From: a virus | Taxonomy: Duplodnaviria > Heunggongvirae > Uroviricota > Caudoviricetes | IMG/VR virus record: IMGVR_UViG_2648501802_000003 | DNA length: 47,423 nucleotides | Reading direction: 5' to 3' (one strand) | Shown: positions 1-47,423 of the stretch, in pieces | Numbering within the stretch: position 1 is the stretch's first letter | Layout of the letters: each line of letters starts with the position of its first letter | Made by a program: the position numbers and the translations under genes | The notes under the pieces: generated by a model | The model's database searches: none | Told to the model about the DNA's origin: nothing | Seen by the model: only the letters and a program-made list of their open reading frames with translations

Positions 1-750
1 TCAGTCAATTGTTTTGTTTATTCCATCTGTGACGCCGATTATTTTCTCAAAATAATGAGATGGCGTGACACCATAATAATCTTTAAATGCACATATGAAA
101 TATGAAGTACTGTTATAGCCACATTTCTGGGCTACGACATTGATAGAATAAGAGTTTGAAGTTATGAGTTTTTTTGCATACCTCATCCTAGTATCTCTCA
201 ATATTTCAGTAAATGACGTTCCTTCATCCCTTAATCTTTTTTTTATTAAACTTTCACTCGTATAAATCAATTCCGCAATATCTTTTAAATGCCATTGCCG
301 CTCAATATTAAAACTGATTATTCCAGTAATTTTACAGGTAAATGTATTTATATTTGTTAGTATAAATGAATTTACACTTTCGCGTTTTTTGAACATGGCA
401 AGTAAGGATATACATAGTCTTTCTTTTAACCAAAGGGAGTGTGAGTCTGCTATTTTAATCCCTTCAAACAGAGAAAAAACAAGCGATAATGGAGGTTCCT
501 CTTCAGCAATATAGCCATTCTTATCAAGAGTAAATTTGCCAGGCAGCTCATTATTCACGTCGATAAAAAAGGATAAACATGTTTTCTTATCTATATCAAC
601 AATTCTTAGTTTAGAGGGGCATACTGGTAACTCCCTTCTAATTTTGTCGCTTACAATAAACAATGAATTTTTTTTGAACGAGATAACTCTCCTGTTTATA
701 ATTAAATCAAATGATTGACAGATGAAAACTACGGAGCAAACATAATCCAT
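1..750 (-). CDS. appY: AraC-family transcriptional regulator AppY
   Basis: 249-aa ORF from the track; sequence ([21 protein letters not shown]...) matches my recollection of E. coli AppY with a C-terminal AraC-type HTH; followed by a long AT-rich upstream region (751-1320). Confidence 0.85.
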
Positions 751-1425
751 CTTGCACCTATCATAAAATTAAAACAAGTTGATAGCAGTCAAATAACAAC
801 CAATTAAATACACAATCATAATCAGGATGATGTGCATTTATATTTTTATACACAAAATTATAGTTTGCAAATTTTAATAAATTTCATTTAAGATTAAATT
901 ATTATATGTATATTGTTTTTTATTCTAACGTATTTCAAAGTTACATTTTTCAACGCTTACTATACTTTTTATTAACATAAACTCACTACAACGCACCTGA
1001 AACCTCTTGCTATATATATGTCAACCGTTTGAATTTAAAATAAAAAGAGTATCATTTTTACTTGCATTTCTTATCAAGTCACATTCAACAACAGTAAAAA
1101 AACATTATTAGAACCATTCAATTAACAAAAAACCAACATCCAGCTTGCTTAATTTTTCTTTATTAAACGACATTGAAAATCAATTGATAAAATACATCTA
1201 AACAACCTTTTGGGGCGCAAAAGCATAACATCAAACAAACAAATAACACACCGAAAAAACTCACAATTAATAACCTATGATATACATACTGTTTATTATG
1301 GTTGAATAAGCCACTCGATATCTGGTGCTACGGAAGTGTCCACACGGTTTAGCAGCACCCGATACTTTTTCCAGGCTTCCAGCAACGAGTTTTCTTCCTC
1401 CGTTGCATATACAGCTCACCTTTTT

Positions 1426-1719
1426 TCACCCACGATTAACCAACAGCCAGACCAGCAGACACGCCACCACCGGCACAGCAAAATCCATCAGGCTTGCCAC
1501 ATCCCACGCGCGCGGATCAAAACCGCCCCACCACGGCATATTCATTCGCTTGCCATGCCCGAACATTTCGATCCAGCGATATTCTGCCTGGGTGTGTTCA
1601 CGCGCAATGAAGAACGTACAACCGGCTATCGCCCCGTAAGCCCAGTTTCCGGTAAAAAGACCAACCAGTACCTGCGCAGCCACAGCACAAAGTGCATGAA
1701 GGAAAGGTGTTATATCCAT
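1426..1719 (-). CDS. Hypothetical small membrane protein (about 3 predicted TM segments)
   Basis: 97-aa ORF with strong RBS (AAGGAGGA 5 nt upstream of ATG at 1719); hydrophobic stretches at N-terminus, middle and C-terminus; no family recognised. Confidence 0.5.
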   Translation of the reverse strand: MDITPFLHALCAVAAQVLVGLFTGNWAYGAIAGCTFFIAREHTQAEYRWIEMFGHGKRMNMPWWGGFDPRAWDVASLMDFAVPVVACLLVWLLVNRG

Positions 1720-1729
1720 TATTCCTCCT

Positions 1730-2413
1730 TTATCCGATATCGCTTCGGGAAGTTAATAACAACTTTAATTCTGACTCAAGTTCATCAACTCTTTCTGTCA
1801 GCTTCTGGATATGGTGAATCAGTGGAACAACCAGACGTTCGTACATTACACCTTCGGCAACAAGGCCATTGCTGGAAATAGCTTCAGGAGCATCATCTTC
1901 GTTAGCTGGTCGCCAGTGTACAAACTGAGGGGCAATTTCTCCTACTTCCTCGGCAATCAATCCGTAGAACCCCCAGTCACGCCTGTCATTTTCGCATTGC
2001 GACCTGTACCACACAGGGCGCATCCTGAAAATGACATCGGCGTGCTCTGAATCTATCGTCTCTACTGAATGTTTATAGCGGATAGACGATGTTGACCGCA
2101 GTACAGACGAAATTGCAGGGTCAGGATTAAGATAAAGGTTTGCCGCCGCAGTAGTCGTGCCCACCCCCCATAAATAAAACGCTTCGCGGCCAGTCAGCGG
2201 GTAAAAATCTCCACCATAATTACCGCTTTCGAGAGCATTCACTTCCAGTTTGTTTTTCAGCTTATTATCAACTTCAGTTTTTGTGTATCTGGAGCTGATA
2301 TCCTGCTTTGCACTGGTCATCTCAGTCTGAAGCGTTGATACTTTTCCGTTAATTGAGGAAATATCTCCCTTTAGCGTGGTGATGTCTCCCGGAATTACTG
2401 TTTTTGTAACCAT
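1730..2413 (-). CDS. Tail-fibre-like protein with C-terminal intramolecular chaperone (peptidase S74-like) domain
   Basis: 227-aa ORF; C-terminal half (SSIRYKHSVETID...DWGFYGLIAEEVGEIAPQFVH...LVAEGVMYERLVVPLIHHIQKLTERVDELESELKLL) has the pattern I associate with tail-fibre/tailspike auto-chaperone domains; RBS GGAG upstream of start. Confidence 0.55.
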   Translation of the reverse strand: MVTKTVIPGDITTLKGDISSINGKVSTLQTEMTSAKQDISSRYTKTEVDNKLKNKLEVNALESGNYGGDFYPLTGREAFYLWGVGTTTAAANLYLNPDPAISSVLRSTSSIRYKHSVETIDSEHADVIFRMRPVWYRSQCENDRRDWGFYGLIAEEVGEIAPQFVHWRPANEDDAPEAISSNGLVAEGVMYERLVVPLIHHIQKLTERVDELESELKLLLTSRSDIG

Positions 2414-2425
2414 TGTCTTACTCCA

Positions 2426-2695
2426 TTAAGCCCATGTCCTTACATGCTGATCTGTCGTAATGAAAGGCATTAAAGAAGATATGTTTTTACTGCCATCAAC
2501 AATCCTCATGTTTACGAAAAAACCACCGCGATCAATGCCTGTACATCTTTCGTTTTCTGGCTCCTCGTAATCGATAATGCAGCCAATAACATCAACAAGA
2601 ACCCCATTTTCTTCTTCAAGACTGAACAGGCCACTGTCATATACAATTGCGTTAAACTGTTCTCTGTTATCGAATCGTAATGTTATATCCCGCAT
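2426..2695 (-). CDS. Hypothetical protein translationally coupled to stf
   Basis: 89-aa ORF whose ATG overlaps the stf stop (TAATG); acidic; no family recognised. Confidence 0.45.
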   Translation of the reverse strand: MRDITLRFDNREQFNAIVYDSGLFSLEEENGVLVDVIGCIIDYEEPENERCTGIDRGGFFVNMRIVDGSKNISSLMPFITTDQHVRTWA

Positions 2696-5058
2696 TATAC
2701 GTATTCCTTAAGCTGCGTATCTGACAATGCTCTGTTCCAGAAACGGAGGTTTTTTATATGACCATTAAGGTGTCGTAATCCTGTCGTCGTTTGCCCCCCG
2801 ATACGAATCACGGCAGCTTCACGAATATATTTCCATACTGTTTTTGTTTCTGTGCTTATATGCTTATTTGCAAATGAGCATGTCATGCCGTCAGCCTTAA
2901 CCCTGAATCCCATAACGAGATCTCTTACTCCGCATGACTCATATACACGTCGGTTAGCCCCGCCTATATCGCAATACGAATAACCGTCCTGACTAATAGT
3001 TCCAGAAGAACCAAACCCCATAATAAATGGGCCCCCGGACTGGTGATTTTCTGAATCAATGACACGCGGTGCAGCATTATGAGAAATAAACCAGTTTTTA
3101 TGGACTTCCACCATGAACGTAAAAGGCATGGTATACATATTTTTCATCAGCGGAAATTTACATAAATCTGATGCACGAGTAGCTGGCTCTGTTGTCGTTA
3201 TGATAAAGGATGTTGCACAAGCACCATACTCAAATTGCGGGGTGGTTACTTCTATCCAGTCACCTGTTGCAAAAGACCCCACAGCTCTGTCGGCTGCAAT
3301 TTGCAACTGCGTACCAACCATTCCCCATTCTGGCAGACATTTCAGGGTTGCCTGAAAATATATCCATCCACTACCTGGATCGATTTCAAAGTTTGCTGTT
3401 AATAGCTGGGCATTACCACCCGTAATTTGTAGTTCATGGGTCTGTAATGACAAATAGGCGTCACAAAGGAAAGTGTATCCTTCCGAGTTATACCGTTCAA
3501 AACGGATACGTGCGCGAACATTGAGATCACTTCTTACCCTGAACGACGCGGTAACATACGGACCTTTACTGTACTGATCATCGCCAGTCACATCTATGCC
3601 TTTATTACCAGCAACTGTGCATATATTTCTCCCTGTTGTCGTTCCTGCTATGTCGCTTCCTACTGTGAAACGTCCATATTTAAACTCAAATTCATCTGTT
3701 GATGATGTTACAGATATACCACCGCTTTTATTCCAGGCATCAGGATTAAAACTATTTACGAACATGTTTGTTCGCTGATTCTCTATCAGCAAACCATATT
3801 TTTCAAAACGAGGAACGTTATTCCCTGCCACGGTAATATGCCCGGACTTATCAATATACGTTGCAGATGAAGCCCGGCTAAATTGGCATATGCCATTAAC
3901 AGGCATTGTTATTTCATCACTGCCGATGGTTATTGTTTTATAGCCCGGGGCATACCCTGTTATCGCTTCCAGAGAATCATTCAAGGGTAGCCAGATATCA
4001 GGAAGCGGAGGGACAGAAGCAGGATCAGCGGCATCTTCTGCAATCCGGGCTGCATTCTCTGCTCTTGTTGCGGCTGACGTTGCTTCTGTCTCGCTAGCTG
4101 CTGCTTTTGTTTCACTCGTCTTTGCGTTAGTTTCACTGGCTTTTGCAGCTTTTTGGCTATTAGCTGCCGCTGTTGCAGAACCAGCTGCAGCACTCTCGCT
4201 TTCGGCTGCTGCATCCTGACTGCTTTTCGCTGCAGTTTCGCTGGCTTTGGCATTCGTTTCGCTGGTCTTCGCTGCCGTCTGGCTGGACTTTGCGTTAGTT
4301 TCACTCGTCTTCGCTGCTTTCTGACTGTTAGCCGCAGCAGTTGCTGATCCGGCTGCTGAAGTCGCAGAACCGGCCGCCGCGCTCTCGCTTTCAGCTGCTG
4401 CAGCCTGGCTGTTTTTCGCCGCAGTTTCACTGGCTTTGGCATTCGTTTCGCTGGTTTTCGCTGCCGTCTGGCTGGACTTTGCGTTGGTTTCGCTCGTCTT
4501 TGCGGCTGTCTCGCTGTTTTTCGCGTTGGTTTCTGATTTTTTGGCTGCTGTCGCGGAGTTTGCCGATGCAGTCTGTGAGGTCGCTGCCGCCTGTGCGCTG
4601 TTAGCTGCATTCGTTTCTGAGGTTTTCGCCGCGTTCTTCGATGATGCCGCTGCAGTTTCGGATTTCTTTGCCACCGCTGCGCTCTGAGAGGCGGCTTCGG
4701 CGTTGCGTGCCGCTTCTTCCACCATTGCCTCAAAACGACGCAATGCCTCTGGCATGACATCATCTTCCGTCATGGCACCGAGAAAATCATTCAGCGTACC
4801 TGGTCTGGAACCTTCATAGACGGTAATGGTTCCGGCATGTGAAGGCGGAAAACCTTCAACCAGCAGGGTGACGCTGTACTGGCCATACTCAACATCCATG
4901 CTGTAACGCCCGGCTTCATCCGGATTTTCAGAGGCCACCGTGTTCACCAGTACCGTGGTGCTGTTACGCTTTGCCTTCAGTTGAATAGTGCAGTTCTGTA
5001 TTGGTTTTCCCGCACCATCTTTCAGCACACCTGAGATTTTTACTGCTGCCATATCCAC
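2695..5058 (-). CDS. stf: Side tail fibre protein Stf-like with divergent C-terminal domain
   Basis: 787-aa ORF; N-terminal ~120 aa (AVKISGVLKDGAGKPIQNCTIQLKAKRNSTTV...) resembles lambda Stf as I recall it; central Ala/Ser/Thr-rich repeats; C-terminal ~450 aa unlike lambda Stf. Confidence 0.8.
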   Translation of the reverse strand: MDMAAVKISGVLKDGAGKPIQNCTIQLKAKRNSTTVLVNTVASENPDEAGRYSMDVEYGQYSVTLLVEGFPPSHAGTITVYEGSRPGTLNDFLGAMTEDDVMPEALRRFEAMVEEAARNAEAASQSAAVAKKSETAAASSKNAAKTSETNAANSAQAAATSQTASANSATAAKKSETNAKNSETAAKTSETNAKSSQTAAKTSETNAKASETAAKNSQAAAAESESAAAGSATSAAGSATAAANSQKAAKTSETNAKSSQTAAKTSETNAKASETAAKSSQDAAAESESAAAGSATAAANSQKAAKASETNAKTSETKAAASETEATSAATRAENAARIAEDAADPASVPPLPDIWLPLNDSLEAITGYAPGYKTITIGSDEITMPVNGICQFSRASSATYIDKSGHITVAGNNVPRFEKYGLLIENQRTNMFVNSFNPDAWNKSGGISVTSSTDEFEFKYGRFTVGSDIAGTTTGRNICTVAGNKGIDVTGDDQYSKGPYVTASFRVRSDLNVRARIRFERYNSEGYTFLCDAYLSLQTHELQITGGNAQLLTANFEIDPGSGWIYFQATLKCLPEWGMVGTQLQIAADRAVGSFATGDWIEVTTPQFEYGACATSFIITTTEPATRASDLCKFPLMKNMYTMPFTFMVEVHKNWFISHNAAPRVIDSENHQSGGPFIMGFGSSGTISQDGYSYCDIGGANRRVYESCGVRDLVMGFRVKADGMTCSFANKHISTETKTVWKYIREAAVIRIGGQTTTGLRHLNGHIKNLRFWNRALSDTQLKEYV
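4100..4640 (-). repeat. In-frame tandem repeats inside stf encoding Ala/Ser/Thr-rich shaft (KTSETNAK...AAAESESAAAGSAT unit, two long copies plus shorter units)
   Basis: Protein segment KTSETNAKSSQTAAKTSETNAKASETAAK(N/S)SQ...ESESAAAGSAT occurs twice; many antisense and off-frame ORFs in the track across this DNA reflect the repetition. Confidence 0.55.
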
Positions 5059-5116
5059 TCCACAAAAAAGCCCGCCTGAACCGGCGGGCTGTCATAACAC
5101 TGTGTTACCTGGCTAA

Positions 5117-5716
5117 TCAGAATTTATAACCGACACCCACGATGAAACCGTCAGTGCGCCAGTCGCCACTGCCGGAGCCTTCATAAGCAATATCAATGGC
5201 CACGGATTCGGTCGGGTTAAACTGCACGCCAGCTCCCCACGCCAGAGACGTGTTGCTGTGGCGATCGTCATCACTTCCGGTCAGCACATCGTGCGTTTTC
5301 CCCTTGTTGTCAGTTACGCGGAGATAATCCCCGGAGAACGTCGAAACACGGCTGTAAGCCACACCTGCCATCGCATAAGCACTGAACCATTCATTCACGC
5401 GTACAGATGGCCCCGCCATCATGCTGAACCAGCGGTTACGCACTGAATCTTCATGCCAGCGGGTATCGCTGTAATGCGTTTTTTGCTCATCTTTGGCATT
5501 GGCATAACTGAATGACGTCACCAGCCCCAGCGTGTCCGTAAATTCATAACGGTATTTCACGTTAATGCCCTTCAGGTCATCACTGCCTGGCATATCAGTA
5601 TGGGTCTGAAGATACCCGGCGCTTAGTGTGGACTGATGCTCTGCTGCGCTCGCTGGCGTACCAGCGGCAACCAGCCAGACTACTGCGGACAGAATAACAG
5701 CACATAATTTACGCAT
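5117..5716 (-). CDS. lom: Lom/Ail-family outer membrane protein
   Basis: 199-aa ORF with signal peptide and C-terminus ...IAYEGSGSGDWRTDGFIVGVGYKF matching recalled lambda Lom; position immediately distal to J as in lambda. Confidence 0.8.
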   Translation of the reverse strand: MRKLCAVILSAVVWLVAAGTPASAAEHQSTLSAGYLQTHTDMPGSDDLKGINVKYRYEFTDTLGLVTSFSYANAKDEQKTHYSDTRWHEDSVRNRWFSMMAGPSVRVNEWFSAYAMAGVAYSRVSTFSGDYLRVTDNKGKTHDVLTGSDDDRHSNTSLAWGAGVQFNPTESVAIDIAYEGSGSGDWRTDGFIVGVGYKF

Positions 5717-6358
5717 AATTACCTCTCGCTTTTCTGCAATAAAAAAGGCGTCATTTCTGACGCCCGTATTGGGGTTATAAAATTCAGCTGATACTGATGC
5801 CTGCGGTGGCTTTCTTCATCACCACAACCAGCAAATCGCTGATACTTGCTGTGGGATACCCGCCATTTACCAGCCATGCCGATACAGAAAATTCCAGTGT
5901 CATGACACCACTGCCTGCAGGCATATCAATAACACCCGTATATATCAGCGTATTATCCAGAGCCGTTCGGTTATAAATTTCAGCACCGTTTTTTCGTACT
6001 ATCAGACGGCATGAGGAGTAGATATCAGTATGATCTTGCTCATGTTTAGCGCCACTGAATGCCACCGCCGGGATAACAATTTGCCGGTCAAACGGCTGAT
6101 CGTCATAAACCCTGACGGTAATGGTTCCTGATGGCCACCGCTCCGGTGCACGGGAGTCCCGGGGGAAAGCTTTGCCCACTGTTTTAACGAGATCGCCTTC
6201 AATCTGGTTCGCGGACAGTTTTCCCAGAACCCGGCAGTTCTCGTTAATCGTGACGTTGTTGAGCGTCCCGGAGTTCGCATTCACGTTACCGCTGATATCG
6301 GCATTTTTCGCCGTCAGCCGCCCGTCCGGTGTCAGGGAAAATGCCGGAGGATTACCGC

Positions 6359-9221
6359 CGCTGGTAATGGTGGGAGCCGTCAGATATTTCAGGAACACTT
6401 CGTTCATGAATATCTGATCGCCCTGACCAACAAACATCGGCTTTGTGTTGCCATTCGCAGGATTAACCATCGCAATCCTGTCCGCCGCCAGCAGCACCTG
6501 ACTCTGCATGCCGTCAGGGGTGTTCTCAATACCGGCACCAATACCCGCGATATAAAGGCGTCCGTCCTGCATCTGCTGCAGCTTCACAGCCCACATGCTG
6601 TTCAGGTTATTATTTGTATCAACCTGAACCTTCTGTATCTGCTGGATCGCCGCACTCTGGTCTTCCAGTTTCTTATTGACAGTCTGCGTGATTTCATTGC
6701 TGACATCCGTAATGGACGTCCTGATTTCAGCCAGGTCAGGCGCAAGCTGACCGTTATCAATCTGCGTCCACAGCTCCTGAGCCAGATGTGTTTTCCCTAT
6801 CTCTCCTTTGAAAAAATCCAGGTAACCTTCCGCATCATCGCTCGCCCGACCGATAGCCTCCACGAATGCCGATTTGCCAACAGTATTCACACTGCGGATA
6901 TAAAAGTAATAATCATGGCCCGGTTTGATATTGATACTGGCAGCTATCCAGTACAGCGCCGTGCCAAGATAGCGGGCTGTGGTTTCAACCTGCCTGATAT
7001 CCGCAATCCGCTTTTCCGAGAACCAGAACTCAAACTGTACCGTCGGATCATAAACGGCAAGATGCGGCGTGGCGGTTATCTGAAAATAGCCCGGCGTCAG
7101 CTCAATCCGCGACGGCGCTGCCGGTGCGGCAATCCGGAACGATACCGACGCCGGATCGCCCTGCTGCCCCCACGCATTTACTGCCCGGACTGTCAGCCTG
7201 TAGTTCCCCAGCGCCAGTTGTGTGAAGCGGTAAGTGGTTTCCGTCGTCCGGGCCGTGCTGACCAGCCGCTCACTGCCGTCATCCGCTGCCACGGTCAGGC
7301 GAAGCAGGAAGCTCACGCCCTTCACCACCTTCGGCGTATCCCAGCGCGCCAGCACCTGGTATTCCCCGCTGTCTGCGGTGACTTCGGCAGTCAGGTGCTG
7401 CACTGCTGGCGGCGTGACACCATTCACCGTGCCGCTCTGGTCACCGTCAAAGTGCGCCCCGTTATCCACGATGGCTTCTTTCTCCGGTACATGCTGCACG
7501 GCAGTGATGGCATACGTACCGTCATCGTTCTCACGGATACTCACGCAGCGGAACAGGCGCTGGCGCAGCGTCGGCAGCTTCAGCCCCCACACGCTGTATT
7601 CAGCAACACCGTCAGGAACACGGCTCACTTTTACCTTCACGCCGTCGGTGACGGACTGAACCTCCACGCTGACCGGATTGCCACTTCCGTCAACCAGGCT
7701 TATCAGCGTGGTACCGGAGGATGGCAGCGTGATTTCACGGTCGAGCGTCAGCGTCCGGGTCTGGCTGTTCACCGCCAGCACGCGACCACCGGTGCTGATA
7801 CCGACATAGTCATCATCGCAGATTTCAATGACATCGCCCGGTACATGGCGAAGCCCTTCAGCACCCACGCTGAAATCCACGGTCTGCGTCTCCAGCAGTT
7901 CCGTTTTAATCAGCCACAGCCCGGCGCGGTGTGCCTGCCCCCGGCTGGTACAGCCAAAGGCATCCATCTTCGTGACATTACGACCGTAACGGGCAATGGC
8001 CTGCGTATCTTCAACAAGCTCTGTCGCCGTCTCCCAGCCGTTGTCCGGGTCAATCCAGTTCACCTCAACGGCATTATGGCGGTCCTTCAGGGCGCTGAAG
8101 CTGTAGCGGAACGGCGCGCCATCATCCGGCATCACCACATTACTGCGGTTATAGGTCCACGCCTTATCCGACGGTCGGTCCTGCACGAACGTCAGCGTCT
8201 GCCCGTTCCATACCGGCATACAGCGCATCGCCGAGCAGAAATCACTGAGCACATCCCACGCCTTGCGCTGTGTGGTCAGGTACGCATTACAGGTGATGCG
8301 CGGCTCCGTGCCGCCAAAGCCGTCCGGCACTGACTGGTCGCAGTACTGGCCGATGACATACAGCGCCCATTTGTCCACATCCGCCGCACCAAGACGTTTC
8401 CCCATGCCGTAGCGCGGATGGGTCAGCATATCCCACAGACACCAGGCCATGTTGTTGCTGTATGCTGGCTTAAACGTTCCGTCCCAGATACCGCTGTATT
8501 GTCGAGTCTGCGGGTTATAGTTCGACGGCACCTGCAGAATACGCCCGCGCAGATGATAATTACGGCTCACCTGCTGGCTGCCGAACTGCTCCGAAATCCA
8601 CCTGTACGCCGACCAGTGCCGTGTTCGGGTAGCACTGTTTCACATCGATGATTTCGGTGTATGACGACCAGAGCGTTTTGTTCTGCAGCTGGTCTGGTGT
8701 GCTGTCCGGCGTCATCCTGCGCATCCGGATATTGAACGGGCGCGGCGGCAGGTTATCCACCACCACCGAGGCCAGATACTGCGAGGTGGTTTTGCCCTTA
8801 ATGGTGATGTCTTTTTCCGTCACCCAGCCACCATTACGCTGTATCTGAACCAGCAGGCGGACTTCCGACGGATTCCGGTCCCCCTTTGAGGTGGTTTCCA
8901 CCAGTGCCTGTACACCGAAGGTAAAGCGCAGACGGTCGATGTTTGCCGACGTGATGGTCCGGGTGATCGGCGTGTCATATTTCACTTCCGTACCCAGCAC
9001 CGTCTCGGAGCCGGAGGATTCAAATCCCTCCGGCGGTGACTGCTCCTGCTCACCGGTCCGGAACACCACCGTGACGCCGGAGATATTGGTATTCCCCTCA
9101 CTGTCCAGCACCGGCGTACTGTTCAGCAGCACGCTTTTTAATCCGTCCACCGGACCTTCAACCGGCCCTTCGCTGATGGCATCGATCACACTCAGCAGCT
9201 GCGTGGACTTCAGGTTGTCCT
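6359..9221. repeat. Tandem direct repeat copy 1 within J (one frameshift near 8593)
   Basis: Near-identical to 9222-12078; e.g. plus-frame ORFs 8891..9280 and 8648..8848 translate the same as 11748..12137 and 11505..11705. Confidence 0.8.
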
Positions 9222-12078
<2,857 letters not shown>

Positions 12079-12181
12079 TCGCTTCGCGCGGGGTATGCCC
12101 CTTACTGCTGCCTTTACCCATTCCTCACGCTCCATAAACGACAAAACCGCCCGCAGGCGGTTTCACATAAAACATTTTGCA

Positions 12182-12854
12182 TCAGCGACCAATCACCACA
12201 ACCTGACCACCATCCCCTTCGTCTGCCGTGCTGATCTCCTGAGAAACCACGCGTGACCCCACGCGCATTTCACCGTACAGAACAGGCAGAACATTGCCCT
12301 GGGCAACCATGTTATCCAGTGAGGAGAAATAGGTGTTCTGTTTGCCGTTATCCGTTGTCTGTGTACGGGGAGTTTCTGGCTTTCGGTGCCAGCATCTGCG
12401 CCACACCACCGAGCACCATACTGGCACCGAGAGAAAACAGGATGCCGGTCATACCACCGGCCCCAATGGCTGCCCCCCATGCTGCAAGGGTGGCTCCGGC
12501 AGTAAAGAATGATCCGGCAATGGCGGCTGCTCCCAGGACAATCTGGAATACGCCACCTGACTTGGCCCCGGCGACTCTGGGAACAATATGAATCACAGCG
12601 CCATCAGGCAGAGTCTCATGTAACTGCGCCGTTAACCCGGACGTGCTGACGTCCCGCCCGGCAATCCGTACCTGATACCAGCCGTCGCTCAGTTTCTGAC
12701 GAAACGCCGGGAGCTGTGTGGCCAGTGCGCGGATGGCTTCAGCCCCCGTTTTCACACGAAGGTCGATGCGGCGGCCAAATCGTTGCAAATCCCCGTAAAG
12801 GCAGATGCGCGCCATGCCCGGTGACGCCAGAGGGAGTGTGTGCGTCGCTGCCAT
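12182..12854 (-). pseudogene. I: Tail assembly protein I, frameshifted
   Basis: ORF 12348..12854 matches recalled lambda I N-terminus and stops at ...APKARNSPYTDNG; the I C-terminus (TQTTDNGKQNTYFSSLDNMVAQGNVLPVLYGEMRVGSRVVSQEISTADEGDGGQVVVIGR) continues in another frame (ORF 12182..12427); extra T in a T-run near 12372-12374. Confidence 0.7.
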
Positions 12855-13495
12855 TTGTCGGTATACCTCTCTCGTTTGCTCAGTTGTTCAGGAATATGGT
12901 GCAGCAGCTCGCCATCACCACAGTAAATGGCGGCATGATTCGGCACCGATGAACCAAAACAGCACAGCAGCACATCGTCCGGTTGTGCTGATGACAACGG
13001 CACCTGATACAGCCCTGTGGCCTCCAGATTATCCAGATAGAGATTCTGACCGTGACGCCACCAGTCATCCCCGCGATGAAAATCCGGCATCTCAATCCCC
13101 GCCAGATGATAAGCATCCCGGAACAGCGTGTAACAGTCCGTCACCCCGTGCTCAAAGCGCCGTCCGGTGAGATGCGGCACACAGCGGAACTTATGAATCG
13201 CCCCCCGGCAGACCAGCCACCACGGCAAATCACTCTGCACCTGCAGCCGCCGGTCAGTCTCACTCAGCCAGGGCAGACCACCGGGGTGGCTGTGGACCAG
13301 CGCCACAATCTCACCCTGCATTTCTGCCTGCAGCCAGTCCTCCGGCGACATCCGGAAATACGCCTCCGGCTCACCGGAGATATTCACGCAGGGGAAATAT
13401 CTTTCCCCCTCCGGCGTGCTTACCACGAAGCCGCACGACTCCGCTGGCGCACATCGCCGGGCGTGCGCCAGAATCGCTGATTCTGTCTGTGTCAT
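12752..13495 (-). CDS. K: Tail assembly protein K
   Basis: 247-aa ORF, MTQTESAILAHARRCAPAESCGFVV... matches recalled lambda K; lambda gene order. Confidence 0.85.
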   Translation of the reverse strand: MTQTESAILAHARRCAPAESCGFVVSTPEGERYFPCVNISGEPEAYFRMSPEDWLQAEMQGEIVALVHSHPGGLPWLSETDRRLQVQSDLPWWLVCRGAIHKFRCVPHLTGRRFEHGVTDCYTLFRDAYHLAGIEMPDFHRGDDWWRHGQNLYLDNLEATGLYQVPLSSAQPDDVLLCCFGSSVPNHAAIYCGDGELLHHIPEQLSKRERYTDKWQRRTHSLWRHRAWRASAFTGICNDLAAASTFV

Positions 13496-21887: not shown

Positions 21888-23207
21888 TTACACTGGTGTG
21901 TTCAGCAAATCGTTAACGGCATCAGATGCCGGGTTACCTGCAGCCAGTGGTGCCGGTGCCCCCTGCATCAGACGATCCAGCGCAGTGTCACTGCGCGCCT
22001 GTGCACTCTGTGGTGCAGCTGCCAGAATGCGGCGGGCCGTTTCCACGGTCATACCGGGGGTTTCGGCCAGCACACGTGCCTGTTCTTCGCGTCCGTGAGC
22101 TTCCTCACAGTTGAGGATCCCCATAATGCGGCTGTTTTCTGCCGCAACCGCAGCGGTGATCTGCGCGTTCACGTCCGGCTGCGCCGCGCTGGCGTTTTCG
22201 CCCTCCGTCGCTTGCACCACGTCAGTAACGTCAGCCTGCGAAGCAGTGGCTGAAACAGTTGTTGATTGAGTCTCTTTGGTCATTCGCCCTCCTGAGAGAC
22301 GGGATTTACGTGCATCCAGTGCATCACGCATAACGGTGATCGCATCGGTGCTGTTGACAAGTTCATCAGCCAGTCCGGCATCAATGGCCTCCTGACCGCT
22401 GTACACTGCAGCCTCGGTATCCAGCACAGCCTGCACGGACAGGCCGGTATATGCCGACACCTTCTGCGCAAACATCCGGCGGGTTGCATCCATCCGGGAC
22501 TGCAGTGTCTCCCGGACATCACCCGGTAGATGGCTGTAGGGGTTGCCATCCACCTTATGGCTGCCGCTGTAAATCAGCGTGATTTCCACGCCCTGTTTCT
22601 CCAGCGCAGCGCCGTAATTACTGTGAGCCATCATGACGCCGATGGAGCCTGTCCGGGCGGTCTGCGTGACCAGACGCCGGGAGGCGGCGCTGGCAAGCAG
22701 CTGACCTGCACTGCAGTTCATGTCGTTGGCCAGCGCCCATACCGGCTTTATGTCACGCACACGGGCGATGATGTCAGCACAGTCAAATGCTCCCGCCACC
22801 ATCCCGCCCGGTGTGTCCATATCGAGCAGAATGCCGTCCACCATCGGATCGCTGGCAGCCTGTTGCAGACGGGCGATAATGCCGTTGTAACCGGTCATTC
22901 CCGAATACGGCTGCAGCGCCCGCGTCCGGCTGACCAGCGTACCGGACACCGGCAGCACGGCGATGCCGTTCATGACCTGATAACTGCGGGCCTGTCGTGG
23001 TCCGTCATCATCACCGGATAACGCCAGCGCCGCGGGTGCCTCTCCGGCAGTCAGGCTGTCGCCGGATACTGCATCCGTCAGGCGACTGATCCCAAGCTGG
23101 CCTGCAAGCGCACAAAAGAAAACCCGCGCATAGGCGGGTTCAAGCATCAGCGGCTCATTAAAAGCCATGCTGGCAATATGCGGGAGATTACGCAGCTCTG
23201 CTGTCAC
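21888..23207 (-). CDS. C: Capsid assembly protease C (scaffold Nu3 expected in-frame within its 3' part)
   Basis: Track ORF 21888..23342 overlaps B; lambda-like N-terminus (M)TAELRNLPHIASMAFNEPLMLEPAYARVFF begins at GTG 23207. Confidence 0.75.
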   Translation of the reverse strand: MTAELRNLPHIASMAFNEPLMLEPAYARVFFCALAGQLGISRLTDAVSGDSLTAGEAPAALALSGDDDGPRQARSYQVMNGIAVLPVSGTLVSRTRALQPYSGMTGYNGIIARLQQAASDPMVDGILLDMDTPGGMVAGAFDCADIIARVRDIKPVWALANDMNCSAGQLLASAASRRLVTQTARTGSIGVMMAHSNYGAALEKQGVEITLIYSGSHKVDGNPYSHLPGDVRETLQSRMDATRRMFAQKVSAYTGLSVQAVLDTEAAVYSGQEAIDAGLADELVNSTDAITVMRDALDARKSRLSGGRMTKETQSTTVSATASQADVTDVVQATEGENASAAQPDVNAQITAAVAAENSRIMGILNCEEAHGREEQARVLAETPGMTVETARRILAAAPQSAQARSDTALDRLMQGAPAPLAAGNPASDAVNDLLNTPV

Positions 23208-24747
23208 TCTTCTCCTCCTCTGTTGATTGTCGCAGTCCGGATTCAAATGCCGCAGCCGCCCAGGCGGGCGGTTTAAGACCGGCTGCACGGCGCTCCATCG
23301 TTTCACGGACCTGCTGGGCAAAAATTTCCTGATAGTCGTCACCGCGTTTTGCGCACTCTTTCTCGTAGGTACTCAGTCCGGCTTCTATCAGCATCACCGC
23401 TTCCTGTACTTCTTTCAGACCATCGATGGCCATACGACCGGAGCCTATCCAGTCACAGTTCCCCCAGGCGCTGCGGGCTTCCTGAAAGCTGAAACGCGCT
23501 TTTGAAGGTAACGTCACCACGCGGCGAACGATGGCCTCTTCCAGCCAGCACAGAAACATCTGGCTCGCCTGACGGGATGCGACGAATTTTCGCCGCCCCA
23601 TAAAGTACGCCCACGACTCGTTCGCACTGGCCCGTGCCGTGGAGTAGCTCATCTGGGCGTAATTCCGGGAAAGCTGCTCATACGAGACACCCAGCCCGGC
23701 AGCGATATACCGCAACAGTGACTGTTCAAACACGGAGTAGCCGTTATCCGTGTCCTGAGCCGTCTGCAGGTTCAGTGAGTCCCCCGGCATCAGGTGCGGC
23801 ACTTTTGCGCCTCCCAGACGGACCGGTGCTGCGGCGTAATACGCGGCAATTTCACCAATCCAGCCGGTCAGCCTTTCCCGCTGCTCCTGACTGTTCGCGC
23901 CCAGAATAAAATCCATCGCTGACTGCGTATCCAGCTCACTCTCAATGGTGGCGGCATACATCGCCTTCACAATGGCGCTCTGCAGCTGCGTGTTCTGCAG
24001 CGTGTCGAGCATCTTCATCTGCTCCATCACGCTGTAAAACACATTTGCACCGCGAGTCTGCCCGTCCTCCACGGGTTCAAAAACGTGAATGAACGAGGCG
24101 CGCCCGCCGGGTAACTCACGGGGTATCCATGTCCATTTCTGCGGCATCCAGCCAGGATACCCGTCCTCGCTGACGTAATATCCCAGCGCCGCACCGCTGT
24201 CATTAATCTGCACACCGGCACGGCAGTTCCGGCTGTCGCCGGTATTGTTCGGGTTGCTGATGCGCTTCGGGCTGATCATCCGGAACTGTGTCCGGAAAAG
24301 CCGCGACGAACTGGTATCCCAGGTGGCCTGAACGAACAGTTCACCGTTAAAGGCGTGCATGGCCACACCTTCCCGAATCATCATGGTAAACGTGCGTTTT
24401 CGCTCAACGTCAATGCAGCAGCAGTCATCCTCGGCAAACTCTTTCCATGCCGCTTCAACCTCGCGGGAAAAGGCACGGGCTTCTTCCTCCCCGATGCCCA
24501 GATAGCGCCAGCTTGGGCGATGACTGAGCCGGAAAAAAGACCCGACGATATGATCCTGATGCAGCTGGATGGCGTTGGCGGCATAGCCGTTATTGCGTAC
24601 CAGATCGTCTGCGCGGGCATTGCCACGGGTAAAGTTGGGCAACAGGGCTGCATCCACACTTTCACTCGGTGGGTTCCACGACCGCAACTGCCCTCCAAAT
24701 CCGCTGCCACCGCCGTGATAACCGGCATATTCGCGCAGCGATGTCAT
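23188..24747 (-). CDS. B: Portal protein B (5' end frameshifted relative to lambda; in-frame ORF begins at internal ATG 24747)
   Basis: 519-aa ORF starting MTSLREYAGYHGGGSGFGGQLRSWNPP...; upstream ATG at 24790 overlaps the W stop and encodes [10 protein letters not shown] but goes out of frame at a C-run (24757-24761). Confidence 0.8.
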   Translation of the reverse strand: MTSLREYAGYHGGGSGFGGQLRSWNPPSESVDAALLPNFTRGNARADDLVRNNGYAANAIQLHQDHIVGSFFRLSHRPSWRYLGIGEEEARAFSREVEAAWKEFAEDDCCCIDVERKRTFTMMIREGVAMHAFNGELFVQATWDTSSSRLFRTQFRMISPKRISNPNNTGDSRNCRAGVQINDSGAALGYYVSEDGYPGWMPQKWTWIPRELPGGRASFIHVFEPVEDGQTRGANVFYSVMEQMKMLDTLQNTQLQSAIVKAMYAATIESELDTQSAMDFILGANSQEQRERLTGWIGEIAAYYAAAPVRLGGAKVPHLMPGDSLNLQTAQDTDNGYSVFEQSLLRYIAAGLGVSYEQLSRNYAQMSYSTARASANESWAYFMGRRKFVASRQASQMFLCWLEEAIVRRVVTLPSKARFSFQEARSAWGNCDWIGSGRMAIDGLKEVQEAVMLIEAGLSTYEKECAKRGDDYQEIFAQQVRETMERRAAGLKPPAWAAAAFESGLRQSTEEEKSDSRAA

Positions 24748-24786
24748 GCCGTCCGGCCCCCAGAAGGGTGGGAATGGTGGGCGTTT

Positions 24787-26889
<2,103 letters not shown>

Positions 26890-30766: not shown

Positions 30767-31849
30767 ATGAAAAAATTAACAGTGGCAATTTCTGCTGTAG
30801 CTGCATCAGTACTGATGGCGATGTCTGCTCAGGCAGCTGAAATTTATAATAAAGACAGTAACAAGCTGGATCTGTACGGGAAAGTTAATGCTAAGCACTA
30901 CTTCTCCTCTAATGATGCAGATGATGGTGATACTACTTATGCCCGTCTTGGCTTCAAAGGTGAAACCCAAATCAACGATCAACTGACTGGTTTCGGTCAG
31001 TGGGAATATGAATTCAAAGGCAACCGCGCTGAATCTCAAGGTTCCTCCAAAGATAAAACCCGTCTTGCCTTCGCTGGCCTGAAATTCGGTGACTACGGCT
31101 CCATCGATTACGGCCGTAACTACGGTGTAGCATACGACATCGGTGCGTGGACTGACGTTCTGCCAGAATTCGGTGGTGATACCTGGACCCAAACAGATGT
31201 GTTCATGACTGGTCGCACTACTGGTGTTGCAACTTATCGTAACAGCGACTTCTTTGGTCTGGTCGATGGCCTGAACTTTGCTGCTCAGTATCAGGGTAAA
31301 AATGACCGCACTGACGTAACTGAAGCCAATGGTGATGGTTTCGGTTTCTCCACTACTTATGAGTATGAAGGATTCGGCGTGGGTGCAACCTATGCTAAAT
31401 CAGATCGCACTGACGGTCAGGTCGCCTATGGTAAGAGCAAATTCAATGCCTCCGGCAAAAATGCGGAAGTATGGGCTGCAGGCCTGAAATATGATGCGAA
31501 CAATATCTATCTGGCTACCACATATTCTGAAACTCAGAATATGACCGTTTTTGGTAATAACCATATTGCAAACAAAGCACAAAACTTTGAAGCAGTAGCA
31601 CAATATCAGTTTGACTTCGGTCTGCGCCCATCTGTTGCTTACCTTCAGTCAAAAGGTAAAGACCTTGGTGTTCATGGTGACCGAGACTTAGTCAAGTATG
31701 TCGATGTCGGTGCTACTTACTACTTTAATAAAAACATGTCCACTTTTGTTGATTACAAAATCAACTTAATTGACGATAGTAAGTTTACCAAAACAGCTGG
31801 TATTGATACTGATGACATCGTTGCTGTAGGTCTGGTTTACCAGTTCTAA
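30767..31849 (+). CDS. nmpC: Outer membrane porin NmpC/Lc-type (OmpC family), uninterrupted
   Basis: 360-aa ORF with signal peptide [23 protein letters not shown], porin-like sequence ending ...VGLVYQF; located between Q and S on the opposite strand as in DLP12 and phage PA-2. Confidence 0.85.
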
Positions 31850-31986: not shown

Positions 31987-32010
31987 GGGGGCGTTGCAAC
32001 GCCCCATTTT
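31987..32010 (+). terminator. GC-rich hairpin followed by T-run (plus-strand terminator candidate; also a stem-loop within the putative short late leader RNA)
   Basis: Perfect palindrome GGGGCGTTGCAACGCCCC followed by ATTTTTAATAATTTTT. Confidence 0.4.
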
Positions 32011-46061: not shown

Positions 46062-46404
46062 GGCCTGTCAGTTTCTTAAGATATCCAGACCAACCGCCAC
46101 CAACTGGATACGAACAGGCCGCCTACAGGCAACACGTAAAGATCCAACCAAGCCAAAATCTCCTTACCTCACAACACGGCAAGCCTGCATTGCGGCGCTT
46201 CAGTCTCCGCTGCATACTGTCCAGGTGAGCGCGGGTGATGGCATAACAGAGGAAAGAAAATGTCACTCTTCCGCAGAAATGAAATATGGTATGCCTCGTA
46301 TTCGCTCCCGGGCGGGAAACGAATTAAGGAATCTCTTGGCACAAAGGACAAGCGGCAAGCTCAGGAGTTGCACGACAAGCGAAAAGCAGAACTCTGGCGA
46401 GTAG
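46033..46404 (+). CDS. xis: Excisionase-like HTH protein; unusually long reading frame overlapping int start
   Basis: From ATG 46033 ([36 protein letters not shown]...) with RBS GAGG; HTH typical of excisionases; the frame runs 145 nt into int. Confidence 0.5.
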
Positions 46405-47423
46405 AAAAGCTAGGGGATTTACCTGATGTCACTTTTGAAGAGGCCTGCCTAAGATGGCTTGAGGAAAAAGCTGATAAAAAATCTCTCGATTCAGATAAAA
46501 GCCGGATTGAGTTCTGGCTTGAACATTTTGAGGGTATAAGGCTTAAAGATATCTCGGAGGCAAAGATTTACTCTGCTGTAAGCAGAATGCATAACAGAAA
46601 GACGAAAGAAATATGGAAACAGAAAGTTCAGGCCGCCATCAGGAAAGGTAAAGAACTGCCTGTTTATGAACCAAAGCCAGTATCAACTCAGACAAAGGCA
46701 AAGCATCTTGCCATGATAAAGGCCATTCTCCGTGCTGCAGAACGCGACTGGAAGTGGCTGGAAAAAGCGCCTGTCATCAAGATACCAGCGGTCAGAAACA
46801 AGCGAGTCAGATGGCTGGAAAAGGAGGAAGCAAAACGCCTTATTGATGAGTGCCCCGAACCACTGAAATCTGTCGTCAAGTTTGCGCTGGCAACTGGTCT
46901 GAGAAAGTCGAACATCATAAATCTGGAATGGCAACAAATCGACATGCAGCGACGAGTTGCCTGGGTGAATCCAGAAGAGAGCAAATCAAACCGCGCCATT
47001 GGTGTGGCGCTGAACGATACCGCCTGTAAAGTGTTGCGTGATCAAATAGGCAAGCATCACAAATGGGTGTTTGTACATACCAAGGCGGCTAAGCGAGCAG
47101 ATGGAACATCAACGCCTGCGGTCAGGAAGATGCGCATCGACAGCAAGACATCATGGCTATCAGCTTGTCGTCGTGCAGGAATTGAAGATTTCCGTTTCCA
47201 TGACCTCAGACACACCTGGGCAAGCTGGCTGATTCAGTCAGGCGTCCCATTATCAGTGCTTCAGGAAATGGGCGGATGGGAGTCCATAGAAATGGTTCGT
47301 AGGTATGCTCACCTTGCGCCTAATCATTTGACAGAGCATGCGAGGAAAATAGACGACATTTTTGGTGATAATGTCCCAAATATGTCCCACTCTGGAATTA
47401 TGGAGGATATAAAGAAGGCGTAA
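46260..47423 (+). CDS. int: Tyrosine integrase (IntD-like)
   Basis: 387-aa [53 protein letters not shown]... with C-terminal catalytic motifs ([10 protein letters not shown]...VRRYAHL); matches recalled K-12 IntD. Confidence 0.9.

Follow-up and report, generated by a model that had tools for sequence, protein, structure and literature searches.

Real duplications mediated by microhomology share a short sequence at the join, and this is also the case for the repeat described here, in which two copies of most of a phage tail gene lie head to tail with four bases in common at their junction. A different point of comparison is provided by contigs assembled with HGAP, whose ends are of low quality, often form near-identical overlaps, and arise from breaks at repeats (PMC4699355, the Circlator paper). 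The third is the gene itself, which encodes a relative of the lambda tip attachment (host specificity) protein gpJ: where lambda has gpJ, the deposited record has a 6.3-kb pseudogene. The repeat lies in a window of 47,423 bp (i.e., the whole stretch of DNA that was analysed), which is the reverse complement of NZ_CP007393.1:1246693-1294115, from the 4,998,910-bp chromosome of E. coli strain ST2747, and which contains the whole of a lambdoid prophage at the DLP12 site (intD to appY). RefSeq annotates positions 5784-12121 of the window as a single 'frameshifted' gpJ pseudogene of 6,338 bp. Our analysis indicates that the J duplication in NZ_CP007393.1 is almost certainly an assembly artefact, in which the overlapping ends of PacBio contigs were written twice, and that J in the real prophage is very probably a single intact gene of 3,480 bp.

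A repeat search and a gapped alignment place the two copies exactly where a prior inspection of the bare sequence (hereafter, the sequence-only reading) had put them, with 6359-9221 repeated at 9222-12078 at an offset of 2857-2863 bp. The repeat search resolves the duplication into nine collinear blocks of 99-100% identity, whose start-to-start spacing steps from 2863 to 2857 bp, and found no inverted repeats or hairpin-type chimeras within 5000-13000. Along the window, the features are as follows:

5784-12121, minus strand: the gpJ pseudogene region of RefSeq, in which one J is written about 1.8 times and the fragments have gpJ Pfam domains.
6359-9221: copy 1, from the gapped alignment, interpreted as the terminal part of the contig that comes from the lom/tail-fibre side.
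9222-12078: copy 2, from the gapped alignment, interpreted as the terminal part of the contig that comes from the gpI/tail side.
9217-9226: the junction, CCT/CGCT, where J, at codon ~1,000, runs directly into codon ~15; present only in NZ_CP007393.1.
8161-8698: the inner error zone of copy 1, with four paralog-derived transitions, an extra A and a GT/TG swap.
9652-10813: the inner error zone of copy 2, with six one-base deletions, one insertion and no substitutions.
5784-8160, minus strand: the clean outer part of copy 1 together with the unique 3' end of J, identical to J of the parent, CP007392.
10814-12121, minus strand: the clean outer part of copy 2 together with the unique 5' end of J, likewise identical to J of CP007392.

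On the minus strand, J starts at 12121 (beginning MGKGSSKGHTPREAKDNLKSTQLL), and past the join the translation continues EDNLKSTQLLSVID, with the four bases CGCT common to both sides; the start at 12121 and the direct join to EDNLKSTQLL at a CGCT, as described in the sequence-only reading, can be seen in both the sequence and its translation. The open reading frames that it cited are present, whether on the strand of J (5784..8570 and 8560..9459, along with a further one at 10769..12121) or as the plus-strand pairs 8891..9280/11748..12137 and 8648..8848/11505..11705, and its statement that no intact J frame exists in the sequence as written agrees with the list of open reading frames and with the 'frameshifted' annotation in RefSeq. 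By gapped alignment, the copies differ from each other by eight one-base indels and six substituted bases. Copy 2 is missing one base at each of 9652, 9712, 10045, 10317, 10714 and 10813 and contains one surplus C, at 10608, with six of these seven indels situated in runs of C. In copy 1 there is one additional A, at 8594, together with substitutions at 8161, 8415, 8454 and 8502 and the GT/TG swap at 8697-8698. The indel positions given earlier were accurate to within 1-2 bases of the aligned ones.

The deposited genomes of this strain allow each copy to be compared with its recent progenitor: CP007392 is a nitrofurantoin-sensitive stool isolate, and CP007393 and CP007394 are resistant derivatives thereof, whose resistance was raised in vitro through three stepwise platings (PMC3983296). 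In the parent, CP007392, J is single and intact, with a length of 3,480 bp (WP_025211043.1), and the sister derivative, CP007394, is single-copy at the site of the CP007393 junction. When each side of the junction is aligned to CP007392, positions 1-8160 of the window show zero differences, all seven deviations of copy 1 lie within 8161-8698, and the seven of copy 2 within 9652-10813. The final 36.6 kb of the window, which begins at 10814, contains three differences, each of which is a one-base homopolymer insertion (at 12373, 24757 and 31987). As such, 14 of the 17 differences between the window and the parent are packed into the 2.65 kb straddling the junction (8161-10813), a density some 80 times that of the background (Poisson P about 3e-22), and the other 44.7 kb contains the remaining three, with no substitution among them. 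Moreover, splicing the clean outer halves of the two copies yields the J of CP007392, base for base.

Comparison with other single-copy J genes, which had been suggested as a check, also favors the parental sequence. Two unrelated and recently sequenced strains, T-HYM1 (a duck isolate from China) and E700025 (a human stool isolate from Pakistan), have an intact 3,480-bp J that is one base off that of CP007392, and both side with the parent at 14 of 14 sites. The locus is single-copy in about 4,100 E. coli genomes. A 201-bp probe across position 9222 is fully covered in only one of 5,426 complete E. coli genomes, that being NZ_CP007393.1 itself, and the 34-mer at the junction is absent from a species-representative genome collection, from JGI metagenome contigs, and from IMG/VR. 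Absence from such collections is a weak negative for a derivative made in the laboratory, yet it is consistent with an artefact.

The manner in which these genomes were assembled offers a likely explanation for the pattern. Each ST2747 genome was sequenced on one PacBio RS II SMRT cell with C2 chemistry and assembled by HGAP (SMRT Analysis 2.0) at ~28x coverage into ~14 scaffolds; these were then arranged, using MapSolver, against an in silico map of ATCC 8739, giving a "gapless chromosome" (PMC3983296). This ordering of scaffolds is documented as the means of closing the chromosome, and the merging of overlapping ends is not mentioned (PMC3983296). The J paralogs in other prophages of ST2747 are about 96% identical. 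With J present in multiple copies at this level of identity, the HGAP assembly of ~28x C2 reads would have broken there, such that two contigs ended within J and overlapped by ~2.86 kb; when the scaffolds were ordered and closed, the two ends would have been abutted without being merged, and the overlap thereby written twice. During polishing, reads reaching the unique lom flank would align best to copy 1 and those reaching the gpI flank to copy 2, and the inner halves, starved of true reads, would then have kept their indel errors, mostly in homopolymer runs. Reads of a paralogous J would also have contributed their alleles to the inner half of copy 1. We infer, then, that the 9221/9222 join is a contig boundary and that low true-read coverage is the cause of the errors in the inner halves.

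This arrangement is like that of the unmerged HGAP/PacBio contig ends already described (PMC4699355) in that a near-identical overlap appears twice, the ends are of low quality, and the break occurs at a repeat (here, a prophage J), and the cases also share an assembler (HGAP) and an era. It is unlike the circularisation problem treated in that paper, in that two internal contigs, ordered on a restriction-map scaffold, would have been involved, at a boundary that we infer and that the record leaves undocumented. One feature of the sequence runs counter to an artefact: the 430-520 bases on each side of the junction are free of errors, save for a possible missing T at 9221. If the quality of the contigs simply decayed toward their ends, we would expect most errors to be at the junction itself, and the flanks are clean there.

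Further evidence comes from the sister derivative. CP007394 has a tandem duplication of its own, 4,782 bp in length, in the same tail region (encompassing the J C-terminus, lom, and tail-fibre genes), and its junction, at L005 position 8409, differs from that of CP007393. In the left arm of this duplication there are two homopolymer insertions in J followed by five within the final 1.1 kb up to the junction, the rest being clean; in the right arm, 15 differences (among them 13 indels and one dinucleotide swap) occupy the first 1.75 kb past the junction, after which the sequence is again clean. The 4,782-bp duplication in CP007394 is false, and it represents an independent replicate of the same inner-edge error pattern. 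That two derivatives bear different duplications at the same repeat-rich locus, each with the same inner-edge error signature, implicates the pipeline and not biology. There is also a structural disagreement between CP007393 and the parent in the J/lom region of a second prophage (L007/L008), with the differences clustered beside the breakpoint; this J locus was checked for a contig-end duplication, and no clean tandem duplication was found.

The substitutions in copy 1 had been viewed in the sequence-only reading as favoring real divergence, but this argument fails once their source is considered. All four transitions (G8161, C8415, G8454 and T8502) are the alleles of a paralogous J located at CP007392:2127167-2130645, in another prophage about 850 kb away, and a 108-bp probe covering three of these variants has as its best match in the sister genomes the paralogous, not the orthologous, J. 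These alleles are mixed with those of the ortholog, which are retained at the diagnostic sites 8250, 8253 and 8505, between and just after the transitions; over copy 1 as a whole, only 4 of the 138 sites that distinguish ortholog from paralog are of the paralog type. The site-by-site mosaic has the look expected of a mixed-read consensus over a thinly covered stretch. Neither the orthologous nor the paralogous J has the extra A at 8594 or the GT/TG swap, both of which are indel-type consensus errors.

Two other origins for this haplotype were considered and rejected. Gene conversion would not leave paralog-type sites interleaved with ortholog-type sites and no contiguous tract, and the haplotype occurs in no J of the 5,426 genomes. 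Nor is copy 1 a natural allele of J: the 581-bp stretch containing the substitutions has no match of at least 99% in the other genomes among the 5,426 complete E. coli, and its closest non-self matches are the canonical sequence or very near to it, at 6-7 differences.

The alternative that best survives these observations is that the 2.86-kb tandem duplication is real and recent, having arisen in the derivative by illegitimate recombination at the CGCT microhomology, with the differences between copies attributable to consensus errors and paralog reads. Tandem duplications in bacteria are known to be common and spontaneous, the junction does show 4 bases of microhomology (by a rough estimate, the chance of at least four at a random junction is a few per cent), and a derivative selected on a mutagenic drug may differ from its parent. 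Nitrofurantoin is both a mutagen and an inducer of the SOS response, and it is therefore conceivable a priori that a real rearrangement took place in the derivative. However, a real duplication should have received equal coverage and polishing throughout, yet the errors are confined to the two inner halves; and whereas genuine duplications of this type share its head-to-tail arrangement and short homology, the copies here differ only by errors at their inner edges, neither the parent nor the sister has this duplication, and the sister assembly has a differently placed one with the same signature at the same locus. It would also leave aside the discordance between assemblies at the J/lom region of the second prophage, and a published account that records the ordering of scaffolds with no merging of overlapping ends (PMC3983296). 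We consider a real recent duplication of this kind very improbable, and its more specific form, in which the duplication arose in an SOS-induced prophage under in vitro nitrofurantoin selection and the copy differences are noise, strikes us as equally improbable. Even if the duplication were real, the apparent decay of J would still be sequencing noise.

Still harder to sustain is an older, genuine duplication of J that has been decaying by frameshifts and substitutions in a tail-defective prophage. There is, to be sure, no intact J frame in the sequence as written, and the substitutions superficially resemble divergence. But because the parent, only three platings away, has one intact J, a decaying duplicated gene is essentially excluded. 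It would, in addition, need 14 mutations in 2.65 kb against zero substitutions in the other 44.7 kb, with the deviations present only beside the junction and not across both copies, transitions that coincide with paralog alleles in a mosaic, and a junction found in no other genome searched; we regard it as having next to no chance of being correct. Of the two alternatives raised in the sequence-only reading, then, that of an artefact is strongly supported, and that of a genuine decaying J is unsupported. We can give just as little credit to the idea that all three ST2747 isolates truly carry the duplication and that it was lost by collapse when CP007392 and CP007394 were assembled: tandem repeats can indeed be collapsed by assemblers, but many reads of 3-10 kb libraries are longer than this 2.86-kb repeat, the parent's single J is intact (that of CP007394 having two homopolymer insertions) and matches the J of independently sequenced, unrelated strains at all but one base, and about 4,100 genomes are single-copy at the locus.

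An assembly artefact is thus the reading to which the several features of this locus converge. What is found is a duplication missing from the other assemblies of the same strain, errors on the inner side of each copy, an intact J restored by merging the overlap, several contigs joined with no documented merging, a break in a repeat, and a similar artefact in CP007394. What would be anticipated from a genuine duplication is not found, in that the differences are not spread at the rate of the flanks and the junction is not in the independent data searched.

With the false duplication removed, the gene is unremarkable. The rebuilt J encodes 1,159 aa and contains, in order, the Pfam domains FNIII-A_GpJ, Phage-tail_3, Ig_J, Ig_J_second, Phage_Tail_Tip and Ig_GpJ_C (all with E<1e-31), making it an ordinary member of the family of the lambda tip attachment protein, from which it shows no difference of kind. 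Within a lambdoid tail module, it is flanked by gpI and lom. Homopolymer frameshifts in the window also break gpI and the portal gene. As for the suggestion that the prophage is tail-defective, there is no sign of such a defect, because the clean halves rebuild the intact J of the parent exactly.

The J duplication holds no biological novelty, and belongs to a well-known class, the unmerged contig-end overlaps of early PacBio assemblies. The combination of clean outer halves with inner halves full of errors can itself serve as a flag, recognizable from sequence alone, for unmerged contig ends in early long-read assemblies. The finding is of value to curation: NZ_CP007393.1 and NZ_CP007394.1, both of which are labeled 'complete genome', hold false kilobase-scale tandem duplications along with homopolymer frameshifts in prophage tail genes, and these could be mistaken for gene duplication or pseudogenisation, for defective prophages, or for structural variation between strains. 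The same assemblies underlie the published comparison between isolates sensitive and resistant to nitrofurantoin. For this strain, NZ_CP007393.1 and NZ_CP007394.1 are unsuitable for inferring the defectiveness of its prophages or structural variation between sensitive and resistant isolates.

The window (1-47423) is a lambdoid prophage of full length, located at the DLP12 site, with the following ends:

46260-47423, intD, one end of the prophage
1-750, appY, the other end, with tRNA-Arg just beyond

The DLP12 element of K-12 is a mere remnant; its cargo genes (emrE, ybcK-ybcO, rusA, quuD, the nmpC-like porin, essD and rrrD) are common to the prophage studied here, which also carries complete head and tail modules. 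One of its genes is divided by PGAP:

2695-5058, minus strand, continuous 787-aa open reading frame, split in two by PGAP
about 4175-4329 and 4364-4518, internal repeats of this gene, 155 bp each

PGAP labels one part a pseudogene ('partial tail fiber N-terminal domain') and the other a protein ('head spike fiber domain'). This division recurs in unrelated strains, and the two repeats show 88% identity at a spacing of about 190 bp.

Within the doubled J gene, the false junction at 9217-9226 reads through in frame as deposited (TITS-EDNLKS), but only because the AAG codon at the join lacks one base; the precise position of the join within CGCT is ambiguous. The sister derivative carries a duplication that is independent of the one in the window:

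NZ_CP007394.1:1281000-1303000 (L005), junction at locus position 8409, tandem duplication of 4,782 bp

This duplication spans the J C-terminus, lom and the tail-fibre genes, with five homopolymer insertions in the 1.1 kb ahead of the junction and 13 indels and a swap in the 1.75 kb past it. The second copy of lom is annotated as three fragments, and J is present in a single copy with two homopolymer insertions.

We also compared a second lambdoid prophage between the derivative (L007, NZ_CP007393.1:2126649-2145045) and its parent (L008, NZ_CP007392.1:2119426-2138026), and found that the structure of its J/lom region differs: about 1 kb of lom and tail-fibre N-terminus in the derivative stands in place of about 2.4 kb of parental sequence, and a cluster of 11 differences (L007 7301-7464) adjoins the breakpoint. 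The genes for the C40 peptidase and tail tube, and lom, show additional frameshifts. The structural difference could be another misassembly, or could reflect real recombination between prophages.

Outside the zone around the false junction (8161-10813), the window differs from the parent by three single-base insertions, affecting or lying near these genes:

12182-12755, minus strand, gpI tail assembly gene, 'frameshifted' in PGAP, extra base at 12373
23188-24790, minus strand, portal gene, 'frameshifted' in PGAP, extra base at 24757
30767-31849, prophage-borne OmpC/NmpC-like porin gene

The last insertion, at 31987 (G4 to G5), is intergenic, between quuD and the porin gene. At 12373, one T more than in the parent (TT to TTT) puts gpI out of frame; gpI is intact (573 bp, WP_000847666.1) in the parent and in both unrelated strains, T-HYM1 and E700025. 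A homopolymer error of PacBio sequencing is the most likely source of the extra T. The portal reading frame is broken at 24757, where a run of four C in the parent has become five (C4 to C5); this too is most likely an error of the consensus. Taken at face value, this frameshift would give the prophage a head-defective appearance too.
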